This document shows positions 6,710-63,612 of a stretch of 64,000 bases of DNA, piece by piece. The stretch comes from Eledone cirrhosa (taxonomy: Eukaryota). The position numbers were made by a program, and so were the translations under genes. Under the pieces are notes generated by a model that worked only from the letters and a program-made list of their open reading frames with translations, did not search any database and was not told the DNA's origin. Numbering within the stretch: the first letter of the stretch is position 1; each line of letters starts with the position of its first letter. Location of the stretch: NCBI GenBank assembly GCA_964016885.1, contig OZ024740.1, positions 124,000,001-124,064,000 of the forward strand, in the 5' to 3' direction.

Positions 6710-7057
6710 GATCATCATCATCATCATCATTTCATTTTACGTCCGCTTTTCCCTGCTTGCAAGGGTGGGACGGGAACTGATTTTGGCTTGATTTCTACAG
6801 CTGGATGCCCTTCCTAACACCAACCTCATTTACAGTGAGTGCTGGGTGCTTTTTTGCCGTGGCACCTCCACGACCACTTTGCAGTGGAATGATAGGGACC
6901 CCAGTCCCTATCATCTCATTTCTACAGCTGAGTAAACTGGAGCAATGTGAAATAAAGTGTCTTGCTCAAGGAAACAACACATCACCCGGTCTGAGAATTG
7001 AACTCACAACCTTTCGATTGCAAGGCCAATGCTCTAACCACTAAGCCATGTGCCTCC
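6710..7057 (-). mobile_element. Composite tRNA-derived SINE (tRNA head + CORE-like domain + RTE-derived 3' part)
   Basis: Minus strand reads GGAGGCACATGGCTTAGTGGTTAGAGC (box A) ... GAGTTCAATTCTC (box B), then a CORE-like segment, an RTE 3' UTR and a (GAT)n tail. Near-identical copy at 21328-21668. Confidence 0.88.
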
Positions 7058-7119
7058 ATGATATATATATGTATATATATGATACATTTATATATATGGT
7101 ATATGTATATACACACACG

Positions 7120-9000
7120 TGCGGTGTTCCACATTGCAAGGCAGTGTGTCAATGCAAATCAGGATGTTGTTGGAGATAAGTGTGTCAGGGATGATGCCGG
7201 TGTACTTAGTGTCATGAATGATCAGAAAAAGGAGGCCTGGAAATGTCATTATGAGAGACTGATGAATGTGGAGAACAAATGGGAGAGAGAGAAATTACCC
7301 TTGGTAGATCCGACAAAGGGACCAGCTATTGAGATTGACGAATATAGGGCCGAAGAGGCGATTAGGGAAATGAAAAATGGTAAGGCTGCCGGACCATCGG
7401 AAATAGTTGCTGAGATGCTGAAGGCATCAGGGGACGTAGGCACTAAACTGGTTGCACGCATCATCAATCAGGCTATATATGGTGGTGTCATACCCAAAGA
7501 CTGGTGCAGCAGTATTCTCATAAATTGCTACAAAGGTAAAGGGAATGCTCTGGAGAGGAGGAATTATAGGGGTATAAAACTGATAGATCAGGTTATGAAA
7601 GTGGGAGAAAGGATTTTAGCGCAACTAATTAGAGAAAGGGTCAAACTAGATGAGATGCAGTTTGGTTTTGTGCCTGGGAAGAGTACAACAGATGCCCTCT
7701 TCTTGGTAAGACAATTGCAAGAGAGGTTCTTAGTGAAGAATAAGCCACTATACTTAGCCTTTGTTGACCTAGAGAAGGCCTTTGATAGGGTACCCCGATC
7801 TGTCATCTGGTGGTCCCTAAGGAAGCTAGGTGTTGAGGAATGGCTTGTGAGGACAGTGCAAACTTTGTACAGAGGTACTCTCAGTAAAGTCAGGGTAGGA
7901 ATGGAGTTTAGTGAGGAATTCCAGATACAAGTATGAGTACATCAGTGTTCGGTCCTCAGCCCGCTCTTGTTCATTATAGTCCTCCAAGCCATAACAGAGG
8001 AGTTTAAGACTGGCTGTCCATGGGAACTTCTCTATGCTGACGATCTGGTTCGTATAGCAGAATCAGTAGAGGAGCTGGAGAATAAATTCTGGCTATGGAA
8101 ATAGCAGTTGGAAGCAAGAAGACTGAGAGTGAATCTAGCTAAGACAAAAGTGTTGATGAGTAGAAAAGAGGAGAAAACCCTGATTCCGTCAGGGAAATGG
8201 CCATGTTTGATATGCAGAAAAGGAACTGGCATAAATTTTATAAAATGCACACAATGCCGATCCTGGGTACACAAGAGATGTAGCGGGATAGCAGGCAAAC
8301 TAACAGGTAGGGAGAAATATGTATGCAGTAGATGTGCAGGGAAATTAGACAGTAGAAGTCGCATTGATAGACACATTTTTCAAATGCAGGAGGGCGCTAT
8401 AGAAGTGGTGGATAGCTTCCGGTACCTGGGAGATCAGATTAGCATGGGAGGAGGGTGTTCCGAGGCCATAGTATCTAGAATAAGGATGGGTTGGAAGTAG
8501 TTTAGGGAGCTGCTTCCTCTGTTGACGAAGAAGGGCTTCTCCCTGCGTATGAAAGGCCGGTTGTATGATGCCTGTGTGAGGACAGCGATGCTACATGGTA
8601 GTGAGACATGGGCAGCAACTGCAGAGGATATGCGACGGCTGGAGAGAAATGAGGCAAGCATGCTCCGTTGGATGTGCAGTGTAAGTGTGCGTGAACGACC
8701 CAGCATAAATGTGTTGAGAGAGAAACTGTGTCTGAGAGGGATACAGTGTAGTGTATGGGAGAGGAGACTGAAGTGGTATGGACATGTGATGCGCATGGAG
8801 GATGACCGATGGGTGAAGAAGTGCCAGGAAATGCCAGTTGAAGGAAGACGTGGTAGAGGTAGACCACGAAAAACATGGGTGGAGGTGGTGAGAACAGACC
8901 TCAGATCATTGAAGCTCACGGTGGAGATGACGAAGGACCGTGACGAGTGGAGAGATGCTGTGCTGAATAAGACCCGCAAGCAGGGAAAAGCGGACGTAAA

Positions 9001-9719: not shown

Positions 9720-10240
9720 ATATATGTATGTAGATATAGTGTATTTTGCAATACAATGTATGTTTAATTAAAAGCATTTTGAAGACCTTACGCTACTGTT
9801 TTAGAGTAGTGACAGTCTCACTTACTTTAAATTTTCAGCAAACAGAGGGGGATAAAGCTGACAGAGCTCTGTTTCCTACTATTTGGTACTTATCAAAGCT
9901 AAGTACTCCATCTGTTTGCTGAAAATCATGAATATTTGATTCTTATAGAATTCTAGTAATAAATCAGGAACTGATTATACAGAGCGGTTGCCGGTCAAGC
10001 AGTAATTGAAAATTAGAATTGGTGCTCTGACAAAGCGATATATATATGAATGTATATATAGTGTATTTTGCAATACACTGTATGCTTAATTAAAAGCATT
10101 TAAAGTAAGTGAGACTGTCTCTACTCTAAAACAATAGTGTAAGGTCTTCAAAATTCTTTTAATTAAGCATACAGTGTATTGCAAAATACACTATATATAC
10201 ATTCAAATATATATCGCTATTTCAGAGCACCAATTCTAAT
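9720..10240. mobile_element. Non-autonomous HHR-bearing repeat: 322-nt terminally redundant arm plus inverted partial arm (retrozyme/PLE-like)
   Basis: GTGTATTTTGCAATAC at 9739 and 10061 (period 322). 10098-10240 is an inverted copy that runs across the unit junction. (TA)n on both flanks. Confidence 0.8.
9856..9900 (-). ncRNA. Degenerate type I hammerhead ribozyme
   Basis: Minus strand: AGCT-TTGATAA-GTAC caaata GTAG-GAAAC-AGAGCTCT-GTC-AGCT. Helix III is the palindrome ACAGAGCTCTGT. The core has two changes from CUGAUGA. Enclosed by a perfect 16-bp helix (9831-9846/9911-9926). Confidence 0.7.
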
Positions 10241-13520: not shown

Positions 13521-15317
13521 CATATAAAAGAAAATTCAACCAGGCTTTTGTAAAATGAATGAACAGAATATGTACTGAAGTAGAAATAATATTAAAACTT
13601 ACAGCTTAGTCTCAACTGTCTGTTACACTTGGTCCTTCTGTAAGTATAGTCAAGAGGAAGAAGTTCAATCGATAAAATTTGAATTTGTCGAGGCAATATA
13701 TATACTTGAAACACTAAGTTACATGCTCTAAACAGACTACAAATGCTTATAAAATACAAATATCTCTATTAAAAATATTCCTATTACAAATATTCCTATT
13801 AAAAAAAAACAGTTGAGGCAGACTTGACTGCTCTCTCTAACAGGTTGAGTGACCATGTACAAGCTTCCTTATTCGCTTGAGGTATGACATGTACTTTGTT
13901 AGGATGCACAGACTTTGAATCCTTCAACACAAATCTAGTATATAAGCCTCATAATTTCACACATTGTGTCTCAGTATAAAGTATCACTATAGTATGACAA
14001 ACTCCTTCAAAGGGACGAAAACATAAGCAAAATAATGCCATATTTGAAAGAGTACAACAAAGTCTTTTCAACAGATATATTTTTGATTCTATTTTCCTAG
14101 TCTTTGATAGTGAAACTGTTACTAGATGTTACTGTAGAAAAATACCTTTATGTACTTCAATATTTCTGATGAATTATACTGTTGATGAGTTTTAATTAAT
14201 TTTTTCAAATAATGAAGTATTTTGAAGTATTTATTTAATTACTACGTTTTCCATCAATAAACTGTTGTTGGGAATGCAACTTTAGATAAAATTAAGGACT
14301 CTATTATATCATAGAATGGGGGGTGATTTCAGGCAGGCTGGTATTAAAAGTCTAAGGAGAAAATGGCTTTTCAGGACAGAGAGAAAGATGCAAGAGAAAA
14401 ATCAAATGGTAATGGTAAAATGGTAAAACCACATAAAAAAAGGAGCATGACACATCTAACAAAATAGTGATGGCCTTATTCAAAAACTGTAACTTTACAT
14501 CTATTAAATATAGTTGATGATATAAAACTGCTTATCTGCAAAAAATTCCATCTTGCATATCAAGCCAATGATGGAACCTTTAGAAGATAACTTGACCTTT
14601 TAAAAGTAGTAGCCAAATCTCCCTCAAATACAGAATTATATGGAATGAGAACTAGAAAACAACGAATATGGCAAAAGCTAGGGGAAACAATTCCAGTCTA
14701 AATCTTTGATCTGACTTGAAAAGTGTGTTTGTTTCGAACAAATACATCAAGTTCTTTATACACAAGCAGCAAATTGGGAAAGTTGTCAGGGCATCAAATT
14801 AAATGCCTTTGTATTTGTTCTGACTTATTGCACTCTGAGTTCAAATTCCACCAATGTAATCTTTATCTTTCATTCTTTTGAGGTCGAAAATTAAAGTATG
14901 AATTCAGTGATGGTGACTTTGTGGAATTTGTTAACGAGTTAGATTGGATGATATGCTTTGATTTCAATTCCTAATCAAATTCTTTTTCCTACTGTCAGTA
15001 GTTGTGACAAGGGGATAGTATCAGTAATTGAAAGACCGATGGAAACATTGTTTCTTTGACCTTATCTGAGGATCAGCTTTTTTCTTTGTCTTCCATTTAC
15101 TTTTGCACAGACAAGACAAGCGATTGTTAACTGTGTGGATTACATAATGAAAAATGTCAGAATATTTTCCTACCTTATAACAAAGTCAAAAAGCAATATT
15201 GAAATGAATACTAACAGTACCTTGACACTGTAACTTGAATTGATTATGTGTGAAAGGAGTTGAAAACTCCTAAAGAGGGAAGAAAGTACTGTGAAATATG
15301 ACAAAGAAAAATAATAT

Positions 15318-16864
15318 TGCATTTGTCGATCTTGAGAAAGCCTTTGACAGAGTTCCACGTGCTGTAATCTGGTGGGCTCTTAGAAAACTAGGAGTAGATG
15401 AATGGCTTGTGAAAGCGATACAAGCCATGTATAGGGGAGCAGTCAGCAAAGTTAGGATTAGCAATGAGTATAGCGAGGAATTTAGCGTACAGGTTAGGGT
15501 CCACCAGGGCTCTGTTCTTAGCCCCCTCCTGTTCATCATAGTCCTGCAGGCAATAACGGAGGAGTTTAAGACCCGATGACCAAGGGAACTCCTGTATGCT
15601 GATGACCTCACACTTATAGCTGAATCTATGGTAGAACTAGAGAAGAAATTCCAAACTTGGAAGCAGGGACTAGAAAGAAAGGGTCACAAAGTCAACCTGA
15701 CAAAGACTAGGGTCCTTGTAAGTAAACTAGAAAACAGAACCCAGATCCCCTTAGAGAAATGGCCTTGCTCAGTATGTAGGAAAGGTGTAGGTAGGAACTC
15801 CATTCTCTCCCCCAAATGCAAAAATGGGTACACAAAAGATGTAGCGGGATCACAGGAAGCTTAATTAAGAATGTAGGCTTCATATGTAGCAGCTGTGCTG
15901 GGACAGCAAGCAGCAAACAGCCACAGGAAATACGCACAACCAATCTCTGTGAGGGCTCTGTAGAAACAGTAGACAGCTTCTGCTACCTAGGTGACTGAAT
16001 TAGCAGCAGAGGTGGGTGTTCAGAAAGTACAATAACTAGGGTAAAAACGGGATGGAAGAAGTTTGGGGAACTACTGCCACTGCTAGCTTCAAAAGGCTTT
16101 TCCCTCAAAATGAAAGGCAGACTGTATGATGCGTGTATCCGAACAGCGATGTTGCATGGTAGTGAGACCTGGGCGCTGAAGGTGGAAGACTTACGTAGAT
16201 TAGAGAGAAACGAAGCCTGCATGCTCCGATGGATGTGTAATAGTAATATACGCAAACGACAAAGCATAAATGAATTGAGAGAGAGACTGAGCATAAGAGG
16301 AATCAAATGCTGTGTGCAGGAGAGGCGGTTGTGTTGGTATGGACATGTGATGCGTATGAAGGATGACAGCTGCATAAAAAGGTGCAGAGCACTAGAAGTC
16401 GATGGAAACCGCAGAGTGGGGAGACCCAAGATGACCTGGGATGAGGTGATAAATGCCGACCTTACCCAATTACACCTCTCAAAGGCGATGACACACGACC
16501 GTGACCTCTGGTGTCACGCAGTAATACAGAGTACCCGACCTCCCATGGGTACAAGCTGAAGCATATAGACAATATACCCCCACACCCCCTTACTGCAAGG
16601 TGGTCGTAGAGGTGCCACGGCAAAAAAGCACCCAGCCCACACTCTAAAGTGGACGTGTACGCGCCACGAAAAAGCACCCAGCACTCACTGTAAATGAGGT
16701 CGGTGTTAGGAAGGGCATCCAGCTGTAGAAATCAAGCCAAATCAGTTCATGTATGAGCAAGGCATGGTCAGCCGACCAGACACTGCCCACAACAGGGCAA
16801 CCGTCTAACCCATGCTAGCGTGGAAGAACGGACGTAAAACGGTGATGTGATGATGATGATGATG
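15318..16864 (+). mobile_element. RTE-clade LINE (subfamily C), 5'-truncated
   Basis: AFVDLEKAFDRVPR, VHQGSVLSP, YADD, finger remnant, GRPKMTW; long 3' UTR and (GAT)n tail; matches 61716-63612. Confidence 0.95.
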
Positions 16865-17273: not shown

Positions 17274-17342
17274 CATATCTTTTCCTTTTTCCTGCTTCAG
17301 CCTTGTCATACAAGGCTGAAGCAGGAAAAAGGAAAAGATATG
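17274..17342. repeat. Perfect 33-bp inverted repeat with 3-nt loop
   Basis: CATATCTTTTCCTTTTTCCTGCTTCAGCCTTGT-cat-ACAAGGCTGAAGCAGGAAAAAGGAAAAGATATG. Confidence 0.95.
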
Positions 17343-26180: not shown

Positions 26181-26959
26181 TAACTAAAATTCTCCTAATT
26201 AAGCTGGTGTTAGGAATATAACTCCACAAATTTTCATTCATAATATTATAATGAAAGGTGTTTAGATAAATATAAACACTTTAAAAAAAACGGTTTTTCA
26301 TCATAGGACTAGGACGAGTTTAATGCAGGCAACAAGAGGGTTGAAAAACTGGGAAAGAAATAAACCCATTTCAACCCATGGTTGAAATTCCCCAAAAAAG
26401 GAATCAATCATGAAATGAATATATTTTCGAGACGATGCTTTACAGATGAAACCCCTGCGCGGTGCCAATCATTTTAGTCATGTATTATGGAATGTAGGTT
26501 TACTGTGAACTTATTCTAAAATGGATACACAGAAAAACAAGAGAAAATAGACTCTACATACACTGTAGAACATCATATTTCAGTTATGTTTGGGCCCCTA
26601 GTCTTTCAGATATTTCAAGCCCACTCTGCCACATACATAACATCCCTGCTTTAGCGTGATATATAATTATCTGTATGTATAGAGTACTGAGTTGAATGAT
26701 GAGCCTACAGATCATAACTATTATAGTAACACCTCATCTATATATTTATATAAAACTATATATATATATAGAGATGTTATATAGTAAGGTGTATTATTCG
26801 TTGTGTAAAACGGTCCAATAAATTTATGTTAGCAATAATAAGTTCTCCACGCTTTTGTATATCTCCAATTCCATTCAAGGGAACAGCTAGATGATGTAAA
26901 GCGGAGTATAAGTATCAAAATGAAAATCTGAAGGCAAGGTAAAATTACAATCATTTTAA

Positions 26960-27033
26960 TCACGACACATGTTTCAATAAGAGATAGATCGATCGTAAAT
27001 TCATGATCAATTATCACTGATCTCATCAGGTGA
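26960..27033 (-). ncRNA. Hammerhead-like motif (atypical stem II) in the left PLE arm
   Basis: TCAC-CTGATGA-[47 nt]-GAAAC-ATGT-GTC-GTGA on the minus strand. Confidence 0.6.
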
Positions 27034-27652
27034 AAATGAATTGTCTTCAAATTCTTGATATGAGGGAGAAAATGAGCAATGTTCACTCACAGAGTTTATT
27101 CCCTCATGTGAAGATCCAGTAGTCAGAAATACGGCGACTGCTATCAGCTTCAGTTAAGGTCATAAAACTGTCAAGTCTCCATAGCTGCAAAGGACGTAGA
27201 AAAACAGTCGGTCACAGTTAATGTGAGTGGGTACACACACACTCCTTACCCATACACACCGGCTCGAGGTCAAAGAAAAAAATATATATATACACATATC
27301 AACACAGCATCAAACCTGTAGAACTATAGAAGGTCACAATTAGTGTGAGTGGGTACACACATACTCACACACACACCGAAGCGATGTCATAGAAAAACAA
27401 CAAATATAAGAATAAGAATATATCAACACAGGATTCACCGAAAATTCGTTTACAAAACAACAAATGCTATATTGGTCAAATCTCAATTTGACGATGTAAA
27501 TTGGAAATATTGAGTTAACCACAGCCCCATACACACACACACACAAGCAAATAAGTTCAGTTCAGTATTCTGTTATACATGTATAGATTGAATTGTAACA
27601 TCCGTATCTTCAAGTGTATGTTATGGATTATCCACATCCGTATCGTCCAAAA

Positions 27653-27973
27653 AATGTTGGGGCAACTGCCACTGAATTTAAGGATAGATGGTATAATCAC
27701 CACCATACCTTTAATAGATTAGATTAAAAAAATAGCACGGCGCTTTCTGAATTAGTCTGGATGCTTAAACATCAGAATATAGAGCACTCCTTATCCTGGT
27801 CCATAATTTTCTCAGCCCAACCTTATAACTGCAGCACGGTTTGCAATTTATGTGTAGCTGAAACCTTTAATATTATTAGAGGCGGCCCCCTATTAATTAA
27901 TAGGAGAGCTGATTTTTGCAGCAATTGCCAACATAGAACCTCGAAAACCTTCTGCAGGATTTTTGGAAAGTAA
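27653..27973 (+). pseudogene. GIY-YIG endonuclease C-terminal remnant of a Penelope-like element
   Basis: In frame: NVGATATEFKDRWYNHHHTFNRLD*KNSTALSELVWMLK...SWSII...PY...CNLCVAE...LINRRADFCSNCQH. This matches the PLE endonuclease pattern YxG..F..R..NH...STxLS..IW.LK...CxLC..E...LN.R....CxH. One stop at 27725. Confidence 0.85.
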
Positions 27974-28576
27974 CTTCCTACTAACTCCTCCCTCTATACT
28001 TTAGCCATATAATTCTCTCAATAAACAGACAGTCATACACTCAGGTAGTTAGACGGTTAAGATTGTTTTCACACTTACAAACGGTACCAGACTTGTTTCC
28101 ACAGAGTTGTCACGGCTGAGATTTGACTGATGTAGCATTTGTTTGTTTTGTAAACGAACTTTCGGTGAATGCTGTGTTGGTATATTCTTATTCTTATATT
28201 TGTTTTTTCTATGCCATCGCTTCGGTGTGTGTGTACCCCCTCACACTAATTGTGACCTTCTATAGTTCTACAGGTTTGATGCTGTATTGATATGTGTATA
28301 TATTTATTTTTTTTCTTTGACCTCGAGCCGGTGTGTATGGGTGTTGAGTGTGTGTGTACCCACTCACATTAACTGTGACCGACTGTTTTTCTACAGATCT
28401 GATTAATGTCCAGCGTCCTTTGCAGTTATAGAGACTTGACAGTTTTATCACTTTAACTGAGGCTGATAGCAGTCGCCGTATTTCTGACTGCTGGATCTTC
28501 ATATGAGGGAATAAACTCTGTGAGTGAACATTGCTAATTTTCTCCCTCATATCAAGAATTTGAAGACAATTCATTT

Positions 28577-28650
28577 TCACCTGATGAGGTCAGTGATAAT
28601 TGATCATGGCTTTACAATCGATCTGTCTCTTATTGAAACATGTGTCGTGA
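28577..28650 (+). ncRNA. Hammerhead-like motif (atypical stem II) in the right PLE arm
   Basis: TCAC(28577)-CTGATGA(28581-87)-[47 nt]-GAAAC(28635-39)-ATGT-GTC(28644-46)-GTGA; helix I extends via TCATTTT/AAGATGA. Confidence 0.6.
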
Positions 28651-28688
28651 TTAAGATGATTGGAATTTTACCTTGCCTTCAGATTTTC

Positions 28689-28739
<51 letters not shown>

Positions 28740-46947: not shown

Positions 46948-49900
46948 ATCATCATCATCATCATCATCAACGTTTAACGTCCGTGTTCCACGCTTGCATG
47001 GGTTTGGACGGGGGTAGTCCCACTTGAGGCAAGAGTGATTGTCTTGCTCGCATAGGACTGTCTGGCAGGTTTTCTACAGCTGGATGCCCTTCCTAACACC
47101 AACCACATTTACAGTGTGGGTCTGGGAGGTTTTTACCGTGTTGCCTACACGGCCACATTACAGCGTGGACTGTGTGTTTTTTTGTCGTGACACCTACACG
47201 ATCTCATTTGTTTCGGCCTGGATGGTGTGGCACCAACACAACTTTACATAGAACTGGGTGGCGTGGATGGGTTGGGGGTGGTGGGACGGGGGGGGGGGGT
47301 ATTTTGTTAGAGATGCCTACTGGCTGTAGTAGGTTTTACTATGTATTTAGGTAAGGCGGGTCTTCTCTGTTACTGAGTACCGCCAAAGGTCTGGGTCCAG
47401 TGACATTGTCTTGGAGAGGTGTAAGTGTGTGAGGTCGGAGTTTATCAGCTCGTCCCAGGTTTTTCTAGGTCTGCCTATTCCGTGGCTACCATCTATCTTT
47501 ATTGCCCTGCACTTTGTTATACAGCTATCGACTTTCATGCGCATCACGTGTCCATACCAACGTAGCCTTCTCTCGAGTAAACAACATCTGATCCCTCTTA
47601 TTTCTAATTTTTTCCTTAGTTCGTTTATGCTTTGCCGTTCACGTATATTACTGTTACACATTCAGCGGAGCATGCAAGCTTCGTTCCTCTCTAGTCTACG
47701 TATATCCTCTGCACACAATGCCCCGGTCTCACTGCCATGCAACATTGCTGTTCGTATGCAGGCATCGTACAACCTGCCTTTCATTTTTAGGGAGAACCCT
47801 TTAGCAGCTAATAGTGGTATAAGCTCTCTGAACTTTTTCCAACCAGTTCTGACTCTAGCTACTATACTTTCAGAGCACCCGCCCCCACTGCTGATTTTAT
47901 CACCCAGGTAACGGAAACTGTCCACTATTTCTATAGAACCCTCTGCGCAATTGAAAGAGCTAGTATTTTGTGGGCGCTTGCTGCTACTTATTGCACCAGA
48001 GCACCGGCCACATGTAAAATCTATGTTCTTAGTTAGCTTACCTGTGATCCCACTACATCTTTTATGCACCCATACTTTGCATTTAGGACATAAAATGGAG
48101 TTTCTACCTACGCCTTTCCTACACACCGAGCACGACCATTTCCCAGAAGGGACCGCCGCCTTATTTTTTTTCCTACAAACTAGAACTTTAGTCTTAGCCA
48201 GGTTAATTTTAAGGCCTTTTGATTCTAGGCCGTGCTTCCATGTTTGGAATTTCTTCTCTAGCTCGGCCATTGATTCCGCTATGAGTGTCAGGTCGTCTGC
48301 GTATAGGAGTTCCCATAGGCAGCCGGTCTTGAACTCCTCTGTTATAGCCTGAAGGGCAATAATAAATAGTAGGGGGCTGAGAACAGAGCCCTGATGGACG
48401 CCAACTTTTACGTTAAACTCTTCACTATTTTCGTTGTTAATTCTAACCTTGCTGACTGTTTCTTTATACATGGCTTGTATAGCTCTCACAAGCCATTCGT
48501 CAACGTCTAGTTTTCTAAGAGCCCACCAGATAATGGAGCGGGGGACTCTGTCGAAGGCTTTCTCTAAGTCGACAAAAGCTAAGTAGAGGGGTTTACCTTT
48601 AGCTAGGTACTTCTCCTGTAGTTGTCGTACAATGAAAAGAGCGTCTGTGGTACTTTTGCCTGACACAAACCCGAACTGCATTTCATCTAGGTCAATTCTC
48701 TCTCTGATTAGTTGTGCTATTACTTTTTCCGTGACCTTCATGACCTGGTCGATTAATTTAATGCCTCTAGAGTTACTCCTATCCAGGGCGTCTCCTATAC
48801 CCTTATAACAGTTAACGATGATGCTGCTATGCCAGTCCTTCGGAACAACCCCATTCTGTACGACTTGGTTAACTATGCGGGTGACCATGGTGTGTCCCAC
48901 CGTGCCAGATGCCTTCAGCATCTCAGCAACTATTTCCGAAGGCCCAGCCGCCTTACCCGTCTTCATATCCTTGATTGCCTTACTTATTATACTCCCCTCG
49001 ACTAACACTGCTGGTCCCTCTATTGGGTCGATAAGGGGGAGACTGTCTTTCTCCCATTTATTCTCTTCATTTAGTAGCCTTTCATAGTGACACTTCCAAG
49101 CTACCTTCTTATCAGCGTCGGTGATGGCAAGTTTGCCATCGTCGTTTAGTACACACTTCTCCCCGACAATATCACGGTTTTCCTTGACGCATTGCCTAGC
49201 AATCCTGAACACCTCACGTTTTTGGTCATCGCGTTGTAGAACATGCTCGAACTTTCTTTCCTCAGCTTCCCTTCTTGCTAAGTACACTTGTCTCCTAGCT
49301 TCCCTCCTGGCCACTTGATAGTATTCTCTACTTCCCCCATCCCGCCATACTTTCCAAGCCTGCTTTTTGGCCTTAATTGACCCCTCCACCTTACTGTTCC
49401 ACCACCATGTTACTCTCCTCCTGCCTACAGGCCTGCTCCAGCCACAGACTTCGTCTGTCGCCAACAGCAGGTTTGCTTTCAGAAATTCCCACTCTCCCTC
49501 TATATTGTCCGACTCTAAATGTTCTTCCTTACTGTCGAAAGCATCAAGTAATATGCTTTGAAATTTATTCCTGGCTGTGGGGTCCTTTAGCTTCCATATT
49601 TTTCTCCTGAGGATAGTCCTCTTCTGCTGTCGAGTACGTCTCGTCCTGACTATGAGGTCGCTAATTATCAGTCTATGTTGGGAGGTGCATTCTTCATGGG
49701 GGAGGGATTTAGTGTTTACAACAGACACTCTGTCACGTCTTCTGGTAAGGATATAATCTACCTGGCTTGTGTGTTCCCCGGATCTATAGGTGATCAGGTG
49801 ATTGTCACGTTTTTTGAAGTTAGTGTTACAGATAGTTAGGTTATTTGCATCACAGAATTCCAGGATTCTGGAGCCTTCCTCATTTCTAGTACCAAACCCA

Positions 49901-50906
49901 TAGCCTCCATGGATTTCGTCGTAGCCGTCACAATGTTGTCCAACGTGACCATTTAGGTCGCCTGCAATAATTATATAGTCACTGTCGGATATTTGGGAGG
50001 TAGTTAGCATCAGTGTCTCATAGAATCTGTCTTTTATAGTGCCGGGCAGTCCGGATTGGGGTGCGTACGCAGATATTACTGTCACCGTAGTTCTATTGAG
50101 GACAAGTCGTATTTTAATTATTCTGTCGTTCACTCTATTTACGTCTATTATCTTATCTGCCCACTTTTCTGCTACCATGATTCCTACTCCACCCAGCCCA
50201 TCGTCGTTTCCCACCCAGAAAAGCTTATAACATCGTTTTTTACCCTCAATGAATCTAGCAGACCCACCCCTCCACCTGGTCTCTTGAATACAACAAACAT
50301 CGACCTCCTTACGTTCAAGCATTTCTACAACCTCGTTAGCGCGACCCTTTAGGGTGCCTACATTTATGGTACCAACTCTGAAGTTTTGGATTGCGTTTGG
50401 GGATTGGGGGCGGTGGGGGGCGGGGGGCGATGGGGTTATGTTAGCCGTCCGCGGTCGAAACAATGAGGAGTGCTCGCATTCTCGTCCAAGAGGTGAATTT
50501 GTCTTTATCTTTGGCATTGTCGCTGAGCGTCCAGATTTTTCTCTCTCTCCTCCACTTTCCAGGATTCCGCAGTCCATCCATCCATCATATATCGAAAGGC
50601 AACCAGGCAAGCGATAGTATAGGCCTCTGGCTTCTGATTGGTCCGCGTAATAATAATACTGGTGATGCGTGGGTGCTCTGGCCTATGATTGGTCCACGTA
50701 ATAGCAATGGTGGTGCGTGGGGGCGGGAGTGAGGGGTGTTGGGTAGCTAGATAGAAGGTAATGATTGAATGGGGTCCTTGCGATTAACAAAAATACAAAA
50801 TTTTATTCTGTTCGATACGACAAAAACTTTCGTATCTCACAATTAATGAATACGAAAAATGTAGATTGTTTTAGCAATAGATTGGCTATTTGGACTTGAT
50901 ACGAAA
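46948..50906 (-). mobile_element. RTE subfamily A LINE, apparently full length and young
   Basis: 5' UTR, single long ORF, 3' UTR and (GAT)n tail; both ends lie in (TA)n. Confidence 0.97.
47347..50517 (-). CDS. RTE polyprotein (APE endonuclease, RT, PHD-like finger), ~1056 codons with one in-frame TGA
   Basis: ORFs 47662-50610 and 47347-47661 are in the same frame, separated by TGA at 47662-47664 where other copies have TGG (MLRW). Likely start is ATG 50517 (MPKIK), conserved at 2341 in copy 1. Confidence 0.93.
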
Positions 50907-51829
50907 TATATATATATATATAACAGTAAACTTCCCTAAAAACTTTATAGATGTTCATATCAATAGTTTAACTTAAGATTTGCCAGGAGCAGATCAGCCA
51001 CACATCGTTTCAATTTATTCTTGTCCTTCATCATCACACCTGTAAAGATCTAAAATCATTATATCTAAAATAATTTCATTTTCTTTAAATTTAGTTTCTT
51101 CAATGGATTCTATCAGCCTGATATACGTACTTTATTACTAATTCCTCATTCTTTTACTGGCTTCAGATATTAGGAAGTGGTCATGCTGGAGTACTACCTT
51201 AAAGATGACCATATCAAGCCCAGTACTCGTTTGTTCATGTCCGTTACATATCATATTGATCTATTTTGTTTAAATGCTAAGTTATTGATCACAAACAAAG
51301 ACACACAGACATATATGGAAGGCTTCTGCACTTTCCAGTAACCAAATTTCTGTTACAAGGCATTGGTCAAACCAAAGCCATAATAGAAAATACTTGAGAA
51401 AGGTACAAAATAGCAGTATTAAACCTGAAATCAAGTGCTTGTGAAGCAAACTCCTTAATAAAAAAGCTATGCTTGCATCTATTAGTTTCTTACTATTAAT
51501 CTGGCATTATTGTTAACTTATCTACCATTACAGCAACTGCCCTAGCTTTATGAAATCATTGAACACAAGTGTTCGATCAAAACTAAAATAAATGTCTGGG
51601 AAATGTTAGTAATTGGAAAATTCTTATGGAGAATTAATAAAGGTATATGATAACTGAGAAAGTGTTCAAGTAAGACACCAAACAATGAGGTTCAAGCATT
51701 AACGTATCTGAATTTTATTATTATTATCATTATTCTAAACTACAGGAAACACAAAGTAAATGTAAAATGATCAAGTGATAAACACACACACTCACACACA
51801 CATTATACTAGCATTGAAAAGCTGGTGTT

Positions 51830-52200
51830 AAATAATTGTTTCTACTTTAGGCACAAGGCCAGCAATCACTAAGTGTATTACTGGTACTTTATTTAAGGAT
51901 GAAGGGCAAAGTCAACCTCGGCGGGATTTGAACTCAGATCGTAAAGGGACGTAACTATGCTGGAAAGCATGGCGTCCAACCTGCTACTAATACTGCCAAT
52001 CTACTGCCCAATGTTAAATAATTGTTTCTACTTTAGGCACAAGGCCAGCAATAACCCAGTGCATTACTGGTACTTTATTTTATCGACCCCGTAACGATGA
52101 AAGGCAAAGTCAACCTCGGCGGGATTTGAACTCAGATCGTAAGGGACGTAACTATGCTGGAAAGAATGGCGTCCGACTCTCTACCGATACTGCCAATCCA
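51830..52200 (-). mobile_element. Two tandem Nin/Deu-domain-like SINE copies (51830-52009, 52016-52200)
   Basis: Both match 9222-9415; TGTTAAATA precedes each copy. Confidence 0.88.
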
Positions 52201-52202
52201 TG

Positions 52203-52233
<31 letters not shown>

Positions 52234-52313: not shown

Positions 52314-52380
<67 letters not shown>

Positions 52381-52594
52381 GTTAAAGTGTACATCTACAT
52401 ATGTATACGGAAGTACTAGTATGCATATAAATACACACATGTATACATATGTACATGTACTGAGTTTTTCACTAGACACTTTGCGGTGAGTGTCCAGCTA
52501 GTCTGTATGTAACTAAACAGACAAACCGGGTTTTAAAGTCATACGAGTTTTCAAGGAAACACACTTCCTCCATTCTCCAGAGAGCCAGACAGGA

Positions 52595-52637
52595 ATATTG
52601 GACTAGTTTCGATGTTATTACATCTCATCAGCAATAT
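52595..52637 (-). ncRNA. Type I hammerhead ribozyme, intact core
   Basis: Exact reverse complement of 53242-53284. Confidence 0.92.
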
Positions 52638-53241
52638 ATACCCATCTTCCGGCTTCTCTAGAGAATTGTAAAAGCACATATCGTTATATGCTTTTTCTAT
52701 GAAAATTAGTAGTGGGCAGACTAATTTGCATAGAACGTGAGTCATTGTACGCACCGGTTCAGCGGAAACGATAAAAACAAATAACGAAACGAAATTAAAT
52801 TTCGTTTCGCTTCTAACTCACTTTTGTATGACTGACGCTTAAACAATTAAGTTAAAGTGTATATCTACATATGTATACGGAAGTACTAGTATGCCTATAA
52901 ATACACACTAGCTGGACACTCACCGTAAAGTGTCTAGTGAAAAACTCAGTACATGTACATATGTATACATGTGTGTATTTATATGCATACTAGTACTTCC
53001 GTATACATATGTAGATGTACACTTTAACTTAATTGTTTAAGCGTCAGTCATACAAAAGTGAGTTAGAAGCGAAACGAAATTTAATTTCGTTTCGTTATTT
53101 GTTTTTATCGTTTCCGCTGAACCGGTGCGTACAATGACTCACGTTCTATGCAAATTAGTCTGCCCACTACTAATTTTCATAGAAAAAGCATATAACGATA
53201 TGTGCTTTTACAATTCTCTAGAGAAGCCGGAAGATGGGTGT

Positions 53242-53284
53242 ATATTGCTGATGAGATGTAATAACATCGAAACTAGTCCAATAT
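53242..53284 (+). ncRNA. Type I hammerhead ribozyme, intact core
   Basis: ATATTG-CTGATGA(53248-54)-GATGT aata ACATC-GAAAC-TA-GTC-CAATAT; helices I and II perfect; helix III is the palindrome ACTAGT; predicted cut after C53278. Confidence 0.92.
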
Positions 53285-53571
53285 TTCTGTCTGGCTCTCT
53301 GGAGAATGGAGGAAGTGTGTTTCCTTGAAAACTCGTATGACTTTAAAACCCGGTTTGTCTGTTTGGTTACATACAGACTAGCTGGACACTCACCGCAAAG
53401 TGTCTAGTGAAAAACTCAGTACATGTACATATGTATACATGTGTGTATTTATATGCATACTAGTACTTCCGTATACATATGTAGATGTACACTTTAACTT
53501 AATTGTTTAAGCGTCAGTCATACAAAAGTGAGTTAGAAGCGAAACGAAATTTAATTTCGTTTCGTTATTTG

Positions 53572-53607
<36 letters not shown>

Positions 53608-53614
<7 letters not shown>

Positions 53615-53972
53615 AAAAAGAAATGAAATCGAAAATGCAACTGGAGTCTTATTTTTTTTTTTAAATATATATATTTATTTGGTTCCTTTACCGGTTCGCA
53701 GTTCTTCTGCTTTTCAAAAGGTGAGTTGAGATGGAGGGTCTGTGGTTTTTCTCACATCAGATGTGAGAAAACCCACAGACCCTCCATCTCAACTCACCTT
53801 TTGAAAAGCAGAAGAACTGCGAACCGGTAAAGGAACCAAATAAATATATATATTTTTTTTTAAAAATAAGACTCCAGTTGCATTTTCGATTTCATCTCTT
53901 TTTCTTTATACTTTCACTCATGTAGGACACCTCGGTTATTTTTCATTTTGTAAAAAAAACCTCACTTTCTAA
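53608..53972. mobile_element. ~300-bp near-perfect palindrome (centre 53759) with degenerate HHR-like motifs; PLE pLTR-like
   Basis: Arms 53608-53758 and 53760-53910; CCTT-TTGAAAA-GCAG aagaa CTGC-GAA-CCGG-TA-AAGG at 53797-53833 with its mirror at 53685-53721; (TA)n flanks. Confidence 0.7.
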
Positions 53973-53994
53973 TATATATATATATATATACATA

Positions 53995-54947
53995 TATAGA
54001 GGAGCTAGAGAATAAATTATGGCTATGGAAACAGTAGTTGGCAGCAAGAGGACTGAGAGTGAACCTAGCTAAGACAAAAGTGTGATGAGTAGAAAAGAGG
54101 ACAAAACTTAGATTCCGTCAGGGAATTGGCCATGTTTGATATGCAGAAAAGGAACTGGCATAAATTCTATAAAATGCACACAAGGCAACTCCTGGGTACA
54201 CAAGAGATGTAGTGGGATAGCAGGCAAACTAACAGGTAGGGAGAAATACGTATGCAGTAGATGTACAGGGAAATTAGACAGTAGAAGTCTTATTGATAGA
54301 CACATTTTTCAAATGCAAGCAGGTTCTATAGAAGTGGTGGATAGCTTCCAGTACCTAGGAGATCAGATTAGCATGGATCCGAGGCCATAGTATCTAGAAT
54401 AAGGATGGGTTGGAAGAAGTTTAGGGAGCTGCTTCCTCTGCTGATGAAGAAGGGTTTCTCCCTGTGTACAAAAGGCCGGTTATATGATGCCTATGTGAGG
54501 AGCGCGATGCTACATGGTAGTGAGACATGGGCAGCAGCTGCGGAGGATATGCTACAGCTGGAGAGAAATGAGGCAAGCATGCTCCGTTGGATGTGCAATG
54601 TCAATGTATGTGAACGACCCAGTAGGGATGAGTTGAGAGAGAAACTGTGTCTGAGAGTGATAGAATGTAGTGTGTGAGAGAGGAGACTGCGGTGGTATGG
54701 ACATGTGATGTGCATGGACGATGATTGATGGTTGAAGAAGTGCCAGGAAATGCCAGTTGAAGGAAGATGTGGTAGAGGTAGACCACGAAAAACATGGGCG
54801 GAGGTGGTGAGAACAGACCTCAGATCACTGAAGCTCACGGTGGAGATGACGATGGACTGTGACAAGTGGAGAGATGCTGTGCTGAATAAGAATCACCCAC
54901 CCTTGCAAGCAGGGAAAAGCGGACGTAAAATGATGATGATGATGATG
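53995..54947 (+). mobile_element. RTE subfamily B, 3' fragment
   Basis: Collinear with 8068-9037; (GAT)n tail. Confidence 0.95.
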
Positions 54948-56977: not shown

Positions 56978-56988
56978 TGGTGACCCCG
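56978..56988 (+). promoter_or_regulatory. Primer binding site, tRNA-Trp-like
   Basis: TGGTGACCCCG two nt after the LTR; complementary to the 3' end of eukaryotic tRNA-Trp. Confidence 0.75.
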
Positions 56989-57028
56989 TAAAACAGACAC
57001 ACAACCTTCTGATCATCCACTACAAACG

Positions 57029-57910
57029 ATGTCTCTCGCACACGACGATTCATCTACGGCAGAAATAGCAGTCAGGGCGGCATTTACATTAAGGATTCCA
57101 CCATTCTGGGTGCACGATCCAACACTGTGGTTCGCGCACATCGAAGCGCAGTTCCCATCGAACCGGATTGTTAGCGAGGCATCCCGTCTCACACATGTCA
57201 CCGGTTCGATGTCTCCGGAGATTATGAATGAGGTTCGAGACCTCATTTTAGCACCACCCGGCTCTGTGTCATATGACACATTTAAAAGAACATTAGTTAA
57301 GCGGACGGCGGAGTCGCAGCAGAAGCGTTTGCACCAGCTCCTCACATCGGAGGAATTAGGAGATAAAAAGCCGACACAACTCCTACGGCGAATGAAGCAG
57401 CTCCTGGGTGAACATAAACTCCCGGATGAAATTTTCAAGCAACTCTTCCTCCAGCATTTGCCTTCTGCCACACAAGTTGTACTAGCATCCACCAGGGAGT
57501 CCACCACCATAGAAGAACTCGCCGAGCTGGCAGATAAGATCATGGAGGTACCACATCCGCACTCAACTTTAGCGAATGTGACGCCAGCCGTGCCTTCCAC
57601 CAATCCTTTCCTTCAGCCCTCCAGTGCCACAGAGATGTCCGATCTACACCAGTAACTGGCACAGCAAGCAACACAGATACAGGCTTTGACGCAACAAATT
57701 CAGACCTTGTCACTGGGCAACCCTGCCACGCGTCGGTCCAAAAGTCGAACTCGCCGATTTCGTGGTCGCTCAAGAAGTCCGGGCGCATCTCGGGATTCAC
57801 CAGAAATGTGTTGGTACCACCAACAATTCGGGAGACGAGCGCAAAAGTGCAGCCATCCCTGTTCATTTGTTTCGAAAACGAATCAGGGAAACGACACAGC
57901 CAGAAACTGA
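57029..57910 (+). pseudogene. Gypsy gag with one premature stop (57653-55)
   Basis: [51 protein letters not shown]. Confidence 0.88.
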
Positions 57911-57950
57911 AGGCGACGGACGTTTCTGGCCCTCATAACCAAAGTCGCCT
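57886..57950 (+). promoter_or_regulatory. -1 ribosomal frameshift signal: slippery G GGA AAC plus H-type pseudoknot
   Basis: Slip site 57886-92 in gag phase; stem 1 GCCAGAAAC (57899-907)/GTTTCTGGC (57922-30); stem 2 AGGCGAC (57911-17)/GTCGCCT (57944-50). Confidence 0.85.
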
Positions 57951-59955
57951 ATTTTTCATTCAGTATCGCGTCACAGGCACGCGTTTCCTGGTCGACACCA
58001 GTGCTGAAGTCAGCATCATCCCGGTTTCCTGCGATCCTGGAAAAAGGAGAGAGACACCAGCCTGGCTCCAGGCGGGGAATCACTCACATATTCGGACCTA
58101 CGGAGAACAGTCCCTGACACTAAATTTGGGACTACGCCGCACTTTCCAGTGGGTATTCGTTGTAGCTAAGCTGCCGACCCCTATTTTAGGAGCTGATCTT
58201 CTTCAGCACTTCTCGCTGCTAGTGGATCTGAAAAACCAACGACTCGTTGACAACTCCACTGGTTTCGCTGTGCGCGGCATAGCCGCTAGGACAGCCACAG
58301 TCAGTCCAGTTATTTCACGATCGACAACAACAACCCGGCACAACCACATCATCAACAAATACTCAGACGTAGCTCGACCACTATTCAACGCTTGCCCTGT
58401 AAAACATGACGTCACACACCACATAAAAACACACGGCCCACCTAGAAGGCTACCACAAGACCGGCTGAAGTCCGTCAAACAAGAATGTCAGCACATGCTG
58501 GATCTCGGCATCATACGTCCGTCCATCAGCAACTGGTCCTCACCCATACACTGTGTACCCAAGAGGTCGTCGAACGACTGGCGAATCTGTGGCGACTACC
58601 GTGCACTGAACAACTGCACCGTTCCTGATTCTTATCCAGTGCCTCATCTACAGCACTTCTCTAGCTCGCTGCACGGTGCTCGCATATTTTCGAAGATCGA
58701 TCTTGTGCGAGCTTACAATCAGATACCTGTTGAGCCCGCAGATATTCCAAAGACTGCAGTCACAACACCCTTTGGAATGTTCGAATTTCTGCGTATGCCT
58801 TTCGGTTTGCAAAATGCAGCGCAGACATTCCAGCGATTCATCGATAGTCACCAGAGGTCTACCTTTTGTATATTCATACATTGACGACTTACTGGTGGCC
58901 AGCAGCTCCGATGAAGTACATGAGAAACACCTGGATCTCCTATTCACACGTTTGCGTGAATACGGAATTGTTATCAACCCCAGCAAATGTGAGTTCGGAG
59001 TTGCGTCCCTTCATTTTCTGGGACACATCATTGACAAAGATGGTATTCAGCCACTTAAGGAGAAAGTCAAATCCATCATTGATTTTCCACAACCTACATC
59101 TCTCCGCAAACTGCGAGAATTTCTTGGCCTGGTAAACTTCTACAGAAGATTTATACCCCACTGTGCAGAGACAGCCCAACCATTCACAGATTTGCTGCGG
59201 CAGCGTACAACCAAAAACGCAAACATCAAGCTCAGCGAAAAAGAATGTACCGCTTTCGCTGAGTTGAAGAAAATGTTGTCCGAGGCTACAATGCTGAGTT
59301 ACCCCAAACCTGACGCCCCAATGTGTTTATTGACTGATGCATCCGATTTCGGAGTTGGAGGTGTGCTTCAACAACTCTCTGGCGATATTTGGCGACCTAT
59401 ATCTTTTTTCTAAGCGATTAAAACCCGCCGAAACTAAGTACAGCACATTCAGTCGTGAATTATTGGCAGCATACCTTGCTGTCAAGCATTTTCGACACAT
59501 GCTAGAAGGTCGTGTGTTCTCTATATACACCGACCACAAACCATTAGTGTACGCGTTCAACGCCAAGCCTGACCGATACTCACCCGGGGAGGTCCGACAT
59601 CTGGACTTCACTTCTCAGTACACTACTGATATTCGGTACATTAAGGGTGTCACCAACTCAGCGGCTGATGCGCTATCGCGCATGGAGCTTAACGCAATCC
59701 ACACCACTGCCACTATCGACCTCCAGAGGATTGCAGCGGATCAACAGAATGACGCGGAACTGCTGCAACTCCGGAAATCACCCTTGAAATTGAAGGAATG
59801 CCCGCTGCCCTCTTCTTCGGGTTTTATTTGGTGCGACATCTCCACAGGCCACGAACGCCCATACGTGCCCCGGAAACATCGACGCGACGTTTTCTCGGCA
59901 CTGCATTCTCTGGCACATCTTGGCGTCCGCGCCACGCAGAAACTGATGGTTGCCA
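57890..59955 (+). pseudogene. Gypsy pol (PR, RT, RNase H, start of integrase), frameshifted
   Basis: FLVDTSA, DYRALN, RMPFGL, YIDD, LTDASD, YTDHKPL, HSLAHLG; then truncated. Confidence 0.92.
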
Positions 59956-61715
59956 CGGCGGCGAAGATTCGAAACCTAATCTGAGCTTTCCCGCCTCTGG
60001 GACAAGCCGTGGTAACTTGTTTACGCTCAAGAGACTAACCCCTTGGGAGAGGCTAAAACTTTGTAACAACACACTCCTGGTATTTTTCTTTACATCGAAA
60101 CCACCATACCAACAGTTACATTCATCCATCCACATATCGTTACAACCACACATATTATTCCGTTACAACTGGTGACCACGTAAAACAGACACACAACCTT
60201 CTGATCATCCACTACAAACGATGTCTCTCGCACACGACGATTCATCTACGGCAGAAATAGCAGTCAGGGCGACAATTACATTAAGGATTCCACAACAGTT
60301 ACATTCATCCATCCACTTATCGTTACAACCACACATAATATTCCGTTACACCTTTACTGTGAAAATATAATAGTATATATAGAATAATGAAAAAGATAAA
60401 ACGAGGCCAAACCCATACTATAATTAATAAAATGCATGGATATTCAGTAATTATGCCCAAAGATAGTGAAAATTGTATCTGATATAAAAAAAACTTCCCT
60501 TGCTTAAGATGGAGCAATATGATTTGAGAGTAACTTCATACCTTCAAACATCATGGAATCCTTTTTACTTAAATGTGAAGGGAGATCTAATGATAAAAAG
60601 AATCAAGATAAATACTTACATTTCAAAAAGAAGTATGCCATTAGAACTCTTTTAATTTTTAGAAGATATAATAACTTTGATAACTTTGATAGGTTTCGGC
60701 CAGTATTGGCTCAGGCCATGTCTAGCTTAATAGCACCACCTGGCTACAACATAGAAATGACCAATGAGTAAATTATACGTTGAAATGGAAAAACAAATAA
60801 GTTACCTTAATTATAAATTCATATGTATGGGTTTTAATGACTTATTTCTGTTATATTCAATATGTTGGTCTATGTACAAAATATGGACACAGTAATTCAA
60901 TATGTCCTTTTGTTGTTGGTAGCATTCCAATCAGATAAAGATACGTTGATCTGTTTCAAAAGTTTTGCATATTCATTTTTCTCCCACTTTTTTTTTCTTA
61001 GTTTCTTCTTTAAAATATTCCCTAAGGAGCATACACTCTCTCCACACCTTTACATACATTCCTTTCTTACAGACTACTTTTGCATCATATGTCAGAACTC
61101 TGGAGAAAATCCAAATTTGGAGATGCATTTATGTTAAGTAGACTTCTACTTAGTTAACAATCATAAACAAAGAATCTGCAGTAAACATACTTCTTTATCA
61201 AGAACAATATTGCAATTCTGGCTCAGTTTTGGCTGAAATTTTGGTAGTGAATCTGTTATATAACTTTACATTTTGATGTCCTTACAATCTTTACTTTTAT
61301 AGCTTTGCATGTAAGCTCACTGAAATAGCAACAATATATAGCATCCACAAATACACGAGGAGACATAACTTCTGATGGGGGCCCAACTAGGTCCAAAAAT
61401 CAATTAAAGGTGTTTATCATTTTTTTTCAACTTACTGGGAAATTCGTATTTTCTGGCTTGTTTACAAACTAAAATTGTGTATATTTATATACACACTTGG
61501 GCAGTCTTACTTACCCACTCTGTACATATAGAGATATAACTTTATTGTACACTTACATATTTGAAGGCTTATCACATCCTTTTGTTCCACAAGTATTTTT
61601 ATTGTGATGCTTCTTCCACATTCTTGCTTGTATTGGAACACTGTGCTTAGTGGTGTTGTTTTCATTAGAATCGAGAACCAACATTGAACAATTGGAGTGA
61701 TCTAGATATTGGAAA

Positions 61716-63612
61716 CATCATCATCATCATCAACATCACCATTTTACGTCCGTTCTTCCACGCTAGCATGGGTTAGACGGGTTGTCCTGTTGTGGGCAGT
61801 GTCTGGTCGGCTGACCATGCCTTGCTCTTACATGAACTGATTTGGCTTGATTTCCACAGCTGGATGCCCTTGCTAACACCAACCTCATTTACAGTGAGTG
61901 CTGGGTGCTTTTTCGTGGCGCCTACATGTCCACTTTACAGTGTGGGCTGGGTGCTTTTTTGCCGTGGCACCTCCACGACCACCTTGCGGTGGGAGGGTGT
62001 GGGGGCATATTGTCTATATGCTTGTACCCATGGAAGGTCGGGTACTCTGTATTACTGCGTGATGCCAGAAGTCACGGTCGTGTGTCATTGCCTTCGAGAG
62101 GTGTAATTGGGTAAGGCTGGCTTTTATCACCTCATCCCAGGTCATCTTGGGTCTCCCCACTCCGCGGTTTCCATCAACTTCTAGTGCTCTGCACCTTTTT
62201 ATGCAGCTGTCATCCTTCATACGCATCACATGTCCATACCAGCGTAACCGCCTCTCCTGCACACAGCATTTGATTCCTCTTATGCTCAGTCCCTCTCTCA
62301 ATTCATTTATGCTTTGTCGTTCACGTATATTACTGTTACACATCCATCGGAGCTGCAGGCTTCGTTTCTCTCTAATCTACGTAAGTCTTCCACTTTCAGC
62401 GCCCAGGTCTCACTACCATGCAACAGTGCTGTTCGGATACACGCATAATACAGTCTGCCTTTCATTCTGAGGGAGAAGCCTTTTGCAGCTAGCAGTGGTA
62501 GTAGTTCACTAAACTTCTTCCATCCCGTTCTTACCCTAGTTATTGTACTTTCTGAACACCCACCTCCGCTGCTAATTCGGCCACCTAGGTAGCAGAAGCT
62601 GTCTACTGTTTCCACAGAGCCCTCCCAGAGATTGGTGGTACTTGTTTCCTGTGGCTGTTTGCTGCTTGCTGTCTCAGCACAGCTGCTGCATGTGAAGCCT
62701 ACATTCTTAATTAAGCTTCCAGAGATCCCGCTACATCTCTTGTGTACCCATTGTTTGCATTTGGGGCAGAGAATGGAGTTCCTACCTACACCTTTCCTAC
62801 ATACTGAGCAAGGCCATTTCCCTGAGGGGATCTGGGTTCTGTTTTCTCGTCTACATACAAGGACCTTAGTCTTTGTCATGTTGACTTTGAGACCCTTTCT
62901 TTCTAGTCCCTGCTTCCAAGTTTGGAATGTATTCTCTAGTTCTACCATAGATTCAGCTATGAGTGCCAGGTCATCAGCATACAGGAGTTCCCATGGGCAT
63001 CCGGTCTTAAACTCCTCCGTTATTGCCTGCAGGACTATGATGAACAGGAGGGGGCTAAGAACAGAGCCCTGGTGGACCCCAACCTGTACGCTAAATTCCT
63101 CGCTATACTCATTGCTAATCCTAACTTTGCTGACTGCTCCCCTATACATGGCTTGTACCGCTTTCACAAGCCATTCATCTACTCCTAGTTTTCTAAGAGC
63201 CCACCAGATTACAGCACGTGGAACTCTGTCAAAGGCTTTCTCAAGGTCGACAAATGCCAAGTAGAGTGGCTTACTTTTAGCTAGGTACTTTTCCTGTAAT
63301 TGCCTCACAAGGAAGAGGGCATCAGTGGTGCCTCTTCCTGGTACAAACCCAAATTGCATCTCGTCTATTTTCACCCGGTCCCTAATCAACTGTGCTATAA
63401 CTCTTTCTGTTACTTTCATGACCTGGTCCATCAACTTCATACCTCTATAGTTTCCTCTATCTAGTGCATCACCTTTACCTTTGTAGCAGTCGACTTTATA
63501 CCTCTATAGTTTCCTCTATCTAGTGCATCGCCTTTACCTTTGTAGCAGTTGACAATGATGCTACTGCACCAATCTTTTGGTATGGCACCTTCTAGTATTA
63601 CCTGGTTAACAA
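61716..63612 (-). mobile_element. RTE subfamily C, 5'-truncated, with a 59-bp tandem duplication near its 5' end
   Basis: ORF 62307-63440 has the RT and an intact C4HC3 finger; duplication at 63439/63498; (GAT)n tail at 61716-61737. Confidence 0.95.

Follow-up and report, generated by a model that had tools for sequence, protein, structure and literature searches.

The insert at 52375-53578 of the window (the whole 64-kb stretch of DNA analysed here) consists of two arms of one 470-nt unit, placed head-to-head in a TA microsatellite, and the question it raises is which machinery put it there and from what kind of RNA template. In the preliminary description the locus was read as a young retrozyme-type unit, reverse-transcribed through an uncut hammerhead junction, and copied more than once around a 470-nt circle or, as a bracketed alternative, along a multimeric transcript. 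The first part of this reading is supported by the present analysis. As to the template, the layout does not require a circle and the multimeric transcript fits it equally well, and a likely mobiliser that the preliminary description did not name is a Penelope-like element (PLE). The insert is probably one young insertion of a non-autonomous hammerhead unit mobilised by the endonuclease/reverse transcriptase (RT) of a PLE. The leading candidate for its template, held with slightly less than even confidence, is an uncut linear RNA, 1.43 units or more in length, that was copied in trans. The features of the locus, and of the other inserts in the window, are given in Table 1.

Table 1. Positions of the features of the two-arm insert and of other fold-back inserts in the 64-kb window
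Feature	Position	Strand	Description
Left arm	52375..52908	-	534 nt, 1.14 units; phase 163 through 470 to 226; 3' end outward
Right arm	52907..53578	+	672 nt, 1.43 units; phase 99 through 470 to 300
Head-to-head junction	52898..52908	.	7/8 bases common to both arms at 52901-52908; last 2 exact
(TA)n run at left arm 3' end	52327..52374	.	likely target microsatellite
(TA)18 run at right arm 3' end	53576..53611	.	common to neighbouring fold-back insert
One-sided 3' extension, 74 nt	53505..53578	+	phases 227-300; right end only, absent from left
Type I hammerhead, right arm	53242..53284	+	core 53248-53278; predicted cut 53278^53279
Type I hammerhead, left arm	52595..52637	-	core 52631-52601; predicted cut 52601^52600
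Predicted long helix	53213..53307	+	53213-53238 pairs with 53286-53307; extends helix I across cut site
5'-truncated PLE fold-back	26771-28703		inverted terminal arms 89% alike, hammerhead in each
PLE endonuclease C-terminal coding remnant	27599-27973		between arms of 26771-28703; one stop
Hammerheads of 26771-28703 fold-back	27029(-), 28581(+)		long 47-nt helix II region
322-nt unit insert, older, hammerhead-like	9726-10240		1.2 copies on minus strand plus inverted 143-nt copy
Near-perfect palindrome	53608-53971		151-nt arms, 95%; 1-nt centre; 61-nt one-sided extension; adjoins the two-arm insert

Phases were numbered from the predicted hammerhead cut in the right arm, phase 1 starting at 53278^53279, over a unit of 470 nt. 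The period is borne out within the right arm, where 208 of 211 overlapping positions are identical, and no period from 460 to 480 besides 470 reached 50% matching. Both copies are longer than the unit, as had been described: the right arm, previously put at about 670 nt, was measured at 672 nt (681 nt when the imperfect junction overlap is counted from 52898), and the left arm is real and measures 534 nt rather than 532 nt. The arms had also been said to start and stop at different phases, none of them at the cleavage site, and this holds: the cut-site phase falls at none of the four arm ends, and both arms read across the predicted hammerhead cut. When the phases are unrolled, the left arm spans 163-696 and the right arm 99-770, so that the former is contained entirely in the latter. 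The 5' ends of the arms meet at the centre, where the microhomology noted earlier was found again (an equal or better match was given by 322 of 220,900 random phase pairs, 0.15%), and the 3' ends face outward into TA runs on both sides. The head-to-head orientation, the position of both 3' ends at (TA)n, the 74-nt stagger between the 3' ends and the minimal helix III of the hammerhead were added by the present analysis.

The left (TA)n run is part of a compound AT/CA tract starting at 52203, and as the flanks of the insert are (TA)n, a target-site duplication is unreadable. The copies differ by six substitutions in 1,206 nt (0.5%, 95% interval 0.18-1.1%), and because the arms are only 0.5% diverged the insert is considered young relative to the neighbouring inserts. 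It is a single locus, with no further copy of the 470-nt unit in the 64-kb window. Sequence words of the insert were present in 20 of 24 listed sequencing runs, at a share of at least 0.2 in six run rows from three studies (best 0.54, which may be the source sample), with no RNA run among those listed; these occurrences were not counted as support. Just left of the microsatellite tract, at 51826-52200, lie two adjoining copies of a dispersed SINE-like repeat of ~190 nt that is also present at 9222, 23663, 25533 and 34149 and in which ARAGORN predicted no tRNA.

The unit has 36.6% GC and carries no recognisable ORF, in agreement with the earlier statement that none was convincing; the longest stop-free frame of the circularised unit is 88 codons and gave no Pfam match. 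Comparison of 177 PLE-type proteins with the window by tblastn gave no match in the insert, all 178 matches falling at 27-28 kb, and no ORF with RT and GIY-YIG, as an autonomous PLE would carry, is present at the insert. A promoter or SINE origin of the unit was rejected, as no tRNA was found in it and no match to A-box, B-box, TATA or polyA consensus patterns. Rfam at the gathering threshold gave no match to the unit, and microRNA identities among 103 matches at the E-value threshold were rejected because they fall below the cut-off and follow hairpins.

All five hairpins named in the preliminary description are present in the predicted fold. Folding of the unit as a circle is predicted to be strong (-156 kcal/mol; z -9.7 relative to 60 shuffles; 69% paired), which counts in favour of a circular template, as does the predicted long helix across the cut site, which would keep the ends of a cut monomer together. 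Against this, the linear monomer is predicted to fold at least equally well (-162 kcal/mol), and linear folds over 47 rotations ranged from -153 to -164 kcal/mol with no phase standing out. Twelve random stretches were folded as controls, one of which was the element itself, and because one of the 11 others also reached z -8.2 the fold of the unit is unusual yet not unique. A 69-nt palindrome (96%) is present at 17274-17342, inside a 470-nt control stretch whose fold had z -8.2.

Each arm contains one intact hammerhead with a complete core, as reported earlier. In both arms helix I has 6 bp, helix II 5 bp and helix III 1-2 bp with a palindromic CUAG; the helix II loop of the right-arm hammerhead is 4 nt. 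At the Rfam E-value threshold the model Hammerhead_HH9 matched the two cores at 32.9 and 30.8 bits (cut-off 52) with E-values of 5.5e-6 and 2.6e-5, both matches lying below the gathering cut-off. A descriptor of the canonical core identified four cores in the 64-kb window, two in the insert and two at 27-28 kb, and gave one match in 20 shuffled windows. The active hammerhead fold is predicted to cost 8-9 kcal/mol over the minimum-energy fold, and the predicted probabilities in the circle ensemble are 0.13-0.19 for helix I, 0.8-0.9 for helix II and 0.0 for helix III. Cervera and de la Pena 2014 (PMC4209133) describe hammerheads with such a minimal helix III as canonical for Metazoa, cutting poorly in the monomer but actively in the dimer, and the axolotl hammerhead HHR_Amex1, with its weak helix III, is reported to behave likewise (PMC7229834). 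The weak helix III of the present unit is predicted to need a tandem partner for cutting. With one hammerhead on each strand, the locus can yield no transcript that carries two in the same sense, and for this reason it would itself release no 470-nt monomer or circle.

Searches of metagenome contigs and viral contigs with the hammerhead patterns gave no matches. A looser pattern gave two loci that have only the core in common with the unit (best E 0.011); these are unrelated hammerhead-like motifs with a minimal palindromic helix III in metagenome contigs (L001, 480-512, minus strand; L002, 292-328, plus strand), and contig L001 contains internal direct repeats of about 120-130 nt.

The layout of the insert was compared with what is described for PLEs. 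In the available text of Craig et al. [quoted passage not shown] PLE copies are usually head-to-head, with microhomology at the 5' junction (Arkhipova et al. 2013, PMC3846280). Purified PLE protein, as described by Frangieh et al. 2024 (PMC11167929), cuts and extends both strands at AT-rich DNA and starts RT at two internal sites, the spacing of which equals the tail; its main substrate in vitro is unprocessed RNA, and hammerhead cleavage is not needed. The insert shows a partial tandem in both arms, a head-to-head inverted 5'-truncated copy and (TA)n flanks. By analogy, the one-sided extension may be a PLE-type tail between two RT start sites; at 74 nt, in the single copy seen, it exceeds the 30-40 bp typical of PLE tails, and this counts against the explanation preferred here. 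PLE anatomy explains the end phases, so the layout alone is no proof of circular RNA. The differing phases, which had been taken as a pointer to a circle, are not diagnostic of one, since a one-sided extension and truncations joined by microhomology are standard for PLEs. In L1-type twin priming on one RNA the 3' end of the left arm is expected near the 5' end of the right arm; these ends lie at phases 226 and 99, and such an origin is disfavoured.

The window is AT-rich and microsatellite-dense eukaryotic DNA, similar in character to cephalopod genomes, with decayed RTE-type LINEs and one 200-N gap. An RTE-type LINE at 47662-50682 (minus strand) has copies at 2319-5400, 7000-9000, 15300-16560, 62300-63500 and 54000-54940; these copies include an endonuclease, an RT and a PHD-like insert, with one frame open for 1,006 codons and best relatives at about 55% identity. 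Frameshifted Ty3/Gypsy-like gag-pol remnants at 56984-59984 (plus strand) were recognised by eye in the translations. As controls for the two-arm insert, the four longest close fold-backs (the insert itself and three others) were taken from 19 that were listed. TA runs are present at both ends in all four, one-sided extensions included, and TA runs plus 5 nt make up 2.0% of the window; the one-sided extensions probably belong to the fold-back inserts. The three others resemble the two-arm insert in layout and are older, with about 5-12% divergence between their aligned arms.

The head-to-head layout is found also on a protein-coding PLE fragment, at 26771-28703, whose left arm extends for roughly another 136 nt before it meets a TA run. 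At an E-value of 0.001 or below, 1,416 relatives were found for the 81-aa piece of its PLE ORF, and the C-terminal end of the ORF is 35-45% identical to five aligned homologues, one with RT motifs upstream. Homologue P0166 contains DKT, FDIVSFYP, GSYDG, YRDD, a Cys-rich linker and a CCHH end, which we take to be the motifs of a Neptune-type RT and endonuclease. Pfam gave nothing above cut-off on the PLE fragment and 16 homologues, and as it is silent on the fragment the PLE label is drawn from the recognised motifs; a word-based search with the fragment gave no matches.

The insert with the 322-nt unit at 9726-10240 has TA runs at both ends with a stagger of about 25 nt, and its circle fold is predicted at z -6.8. 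It contains, at 9896 on the minus strand, a hammerhead-like motif of the U3-A8 variant that caps a long helix and has a single mismatch at the helix II base; motifs of this kind occurred four times in 20 shuffled windows, and a U3-A8 variant hammerhead core has already been published. In the palindrome at 53608-53971 no hammerhead was found; TA runs lie on either side of it, and it probably represents a different family of PLE-type insert, here of very small size. The 470-nt unit has no significant sequence similarity to the fold-backs at 26771-28703 and 53608-53971.

Under the preferred explanation, a tandem or partial-tandem donor elsewhere would be transcribed, and the hammerhead in the transcript would stay uncut, its helix III being too weak to act alone. 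A PLE protein, probably of Neptune type, would nick both strands of a (TA)n tract, and each 3'-OH would prime a cDNA that begins inside the template, at phase 226 in one case and phase 300 in the other. Both cDNAs would pass the unit boundary, halt early and become joined end to end, with two start sites and two truncations to account for the phase differences. Both arms cross the cut site, which calls for a template that was either re-ligated into a circle or left uncut as a transcript, and because the left arm is nested in the right arm, a single linear RNA of 1.43 units could have templated both. No donor locus or cognate PLE ORF for the 470-nt unit was seen in the 64-kb window, which counts against this explanation.

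PLE-driven insertion from a ligated 470-nt RNA circle, with RT proceeding slightly over one round per primer, is a tentative second reading; the circle would derive from a tandem donor cut by dimeric hammerhead cleavage. Besides the crossing of the cut site by both arms and the strong circular fold, it is favoured by the about equal closeness of all segments, with the six substitutions noted above. Circles have been shown for the retrozymes of three animals, those of coral, mussel and axolotl accumulating largely in this form (PMC7229834), and on this ground a circle would be the commoner template, which counts against linear RNA. Synthesis of more-than-unit cDNA from circles was proposed in 2014 for PLEs (PMC4209133) and in 2020 for retrozymes (PMC7229834; PMC7761336). 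A circle is not demanded by the layout, however, and the arms, at 1.14 and 1.43 units, stay under 1.5. PLE insertion in vitro proceeds without need for hammerhead cleavage (PMC11167929), and among Xenopus dimer elements cleavage in vitro is reported for one of nine (preprint 10.64898/2026.07.22.740005). The substitutions within the arms (2/64 against 1/202, Fisher p = 0.14) were uninformative as a test of circle against multimer.

A third reading, in which an autonomous PLE carries the 470-nt repeat as a tandem module of its non-coding end and the insert is a copy so heavily 5'-truncated that it falls short of the ORF, is unlikely. Hammerheads are known in PLE terminal repeats, published opposite-strand pairs 100-700 bp apart are probable truncated PLEs (the pair here is about 620 bp apart), and the fold-back at 26771-28703 is a comparable insert with an ORF remnant. 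The period of a normal partial tandem is nevertheless the whole element of about 3 kb and not 470 nt, none of the 177 PLE-type proteins matches the insert, and a 6-bp helix I with a short palindromic helix III is canonical for small tandem repeats (PMC4209133). Least probable of all is that the inverted duplication is an assembly artefact, or arose at the DNA level from a tandem copy by fold-back or template switch in break repair: the window is scaffolded and such structures are known to trouble assemblies (PMC8557442), but the arms are asymmetric, are set apart by private substitutions and meet their TA runs at different phases, and the three older fold-backs repeat the layout.

The link between retrozymes and PLEs has so far been drawn, in the retrozyme literature available, from shared hammerheads, co-occurrence and pLTR homology. 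The locus adds evidence of a different kind, a PLE integration footprint on a retrozyme-type unit, and the same 64 kb also contains a second retrozyme-like family and a coding PLE fragment. One may entertain, with more doubt than confidence, the thought that the insert is the direct fossil of an event in which a PLE protein dimer, priming on either strand at a single (TA)n cut, made more than one round on a 470-nt hammerhead circle. If this were true, the insert would, together with the 322-nt unit, indicate that retrozyme circles are actual substrates of PLE RT, which has so far only been hypothesised, and it would offer a small natural substrate for in vitro work. The locus reveals no new kind of element and alone does not show circles. 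The circle model has already been published (2014, 2020). The added value of the PLE footprint is modest: it usefully supports a hypothesis that had already been proposed, and the unit is a defined substrate for PLE RT on circles as against uncut linear RNA.

Among known systems, those Chlamys PLEs that are non-autonomous, for example MRC1 of Chlamydomonas, resemble the insert as non-coding parasites of PLEs; in the available text of PMC8557442 these green algal parasites form pLTRs and head-to-tail copies and have 3' sequence in common with an autonomous family. Unlike the insert, most Chlamys are without canonical hammerheads. Endonuclease-positive PLEs of the Neptune/Naiad type are alike in the partial tandem, the inverted truncated copy, the one-sided extension, the microhomology junction, the (TA)n target and a hammerhead near the 3' end; the insert differs from them in having neither RT nor GIY-YIG, in a unit of 470 nt as against about 3 kb, and in the length of its tail.

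With the metazoan non-LTR retrozymes the insert shares a short, low-GC, non-coding unit with one type I hammerhead, the RNA of which is predicted to be highly self-paired. The unit is just over the 150-450 bp range given by Cervera and de la Pena 2020 (PMC7229834) and inside the 51-972 bp of Li, Clavereau and Pollet (2026 preprint, 10.64898/2026.07.22.740005). By the test of the 2026 preprint, two or more units follow one another in an active retrozyme, and a complete hammerhead is present in every one of them; the insert differs in having one hammerhead per arm, on opposite strands and not in direct tandem, and for this reason it is filed as an offspring-type copy and not as an active retrozyme locus. 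In the literature searched, mostly open-access texts whose supplements may list cases, no cephalopod retrozyme is described, and no retrozyme is said to have inverted arms or tails or to target (TA)n. The weak palindromic helix III is matched by that of axolotl HHR_Amex1 (PMC7229834). Metazoan retrozymes co-occur with PLEs and have been proposed to be mobilised by them (PMC7229834; 10.64898/2026.07.22.740005), and the 2026 preprint argues that they are non-autonomous PLE derivatives. The insert is likely to be an offspring copy of a retrozyme-type unit, probably moved by a PLE.
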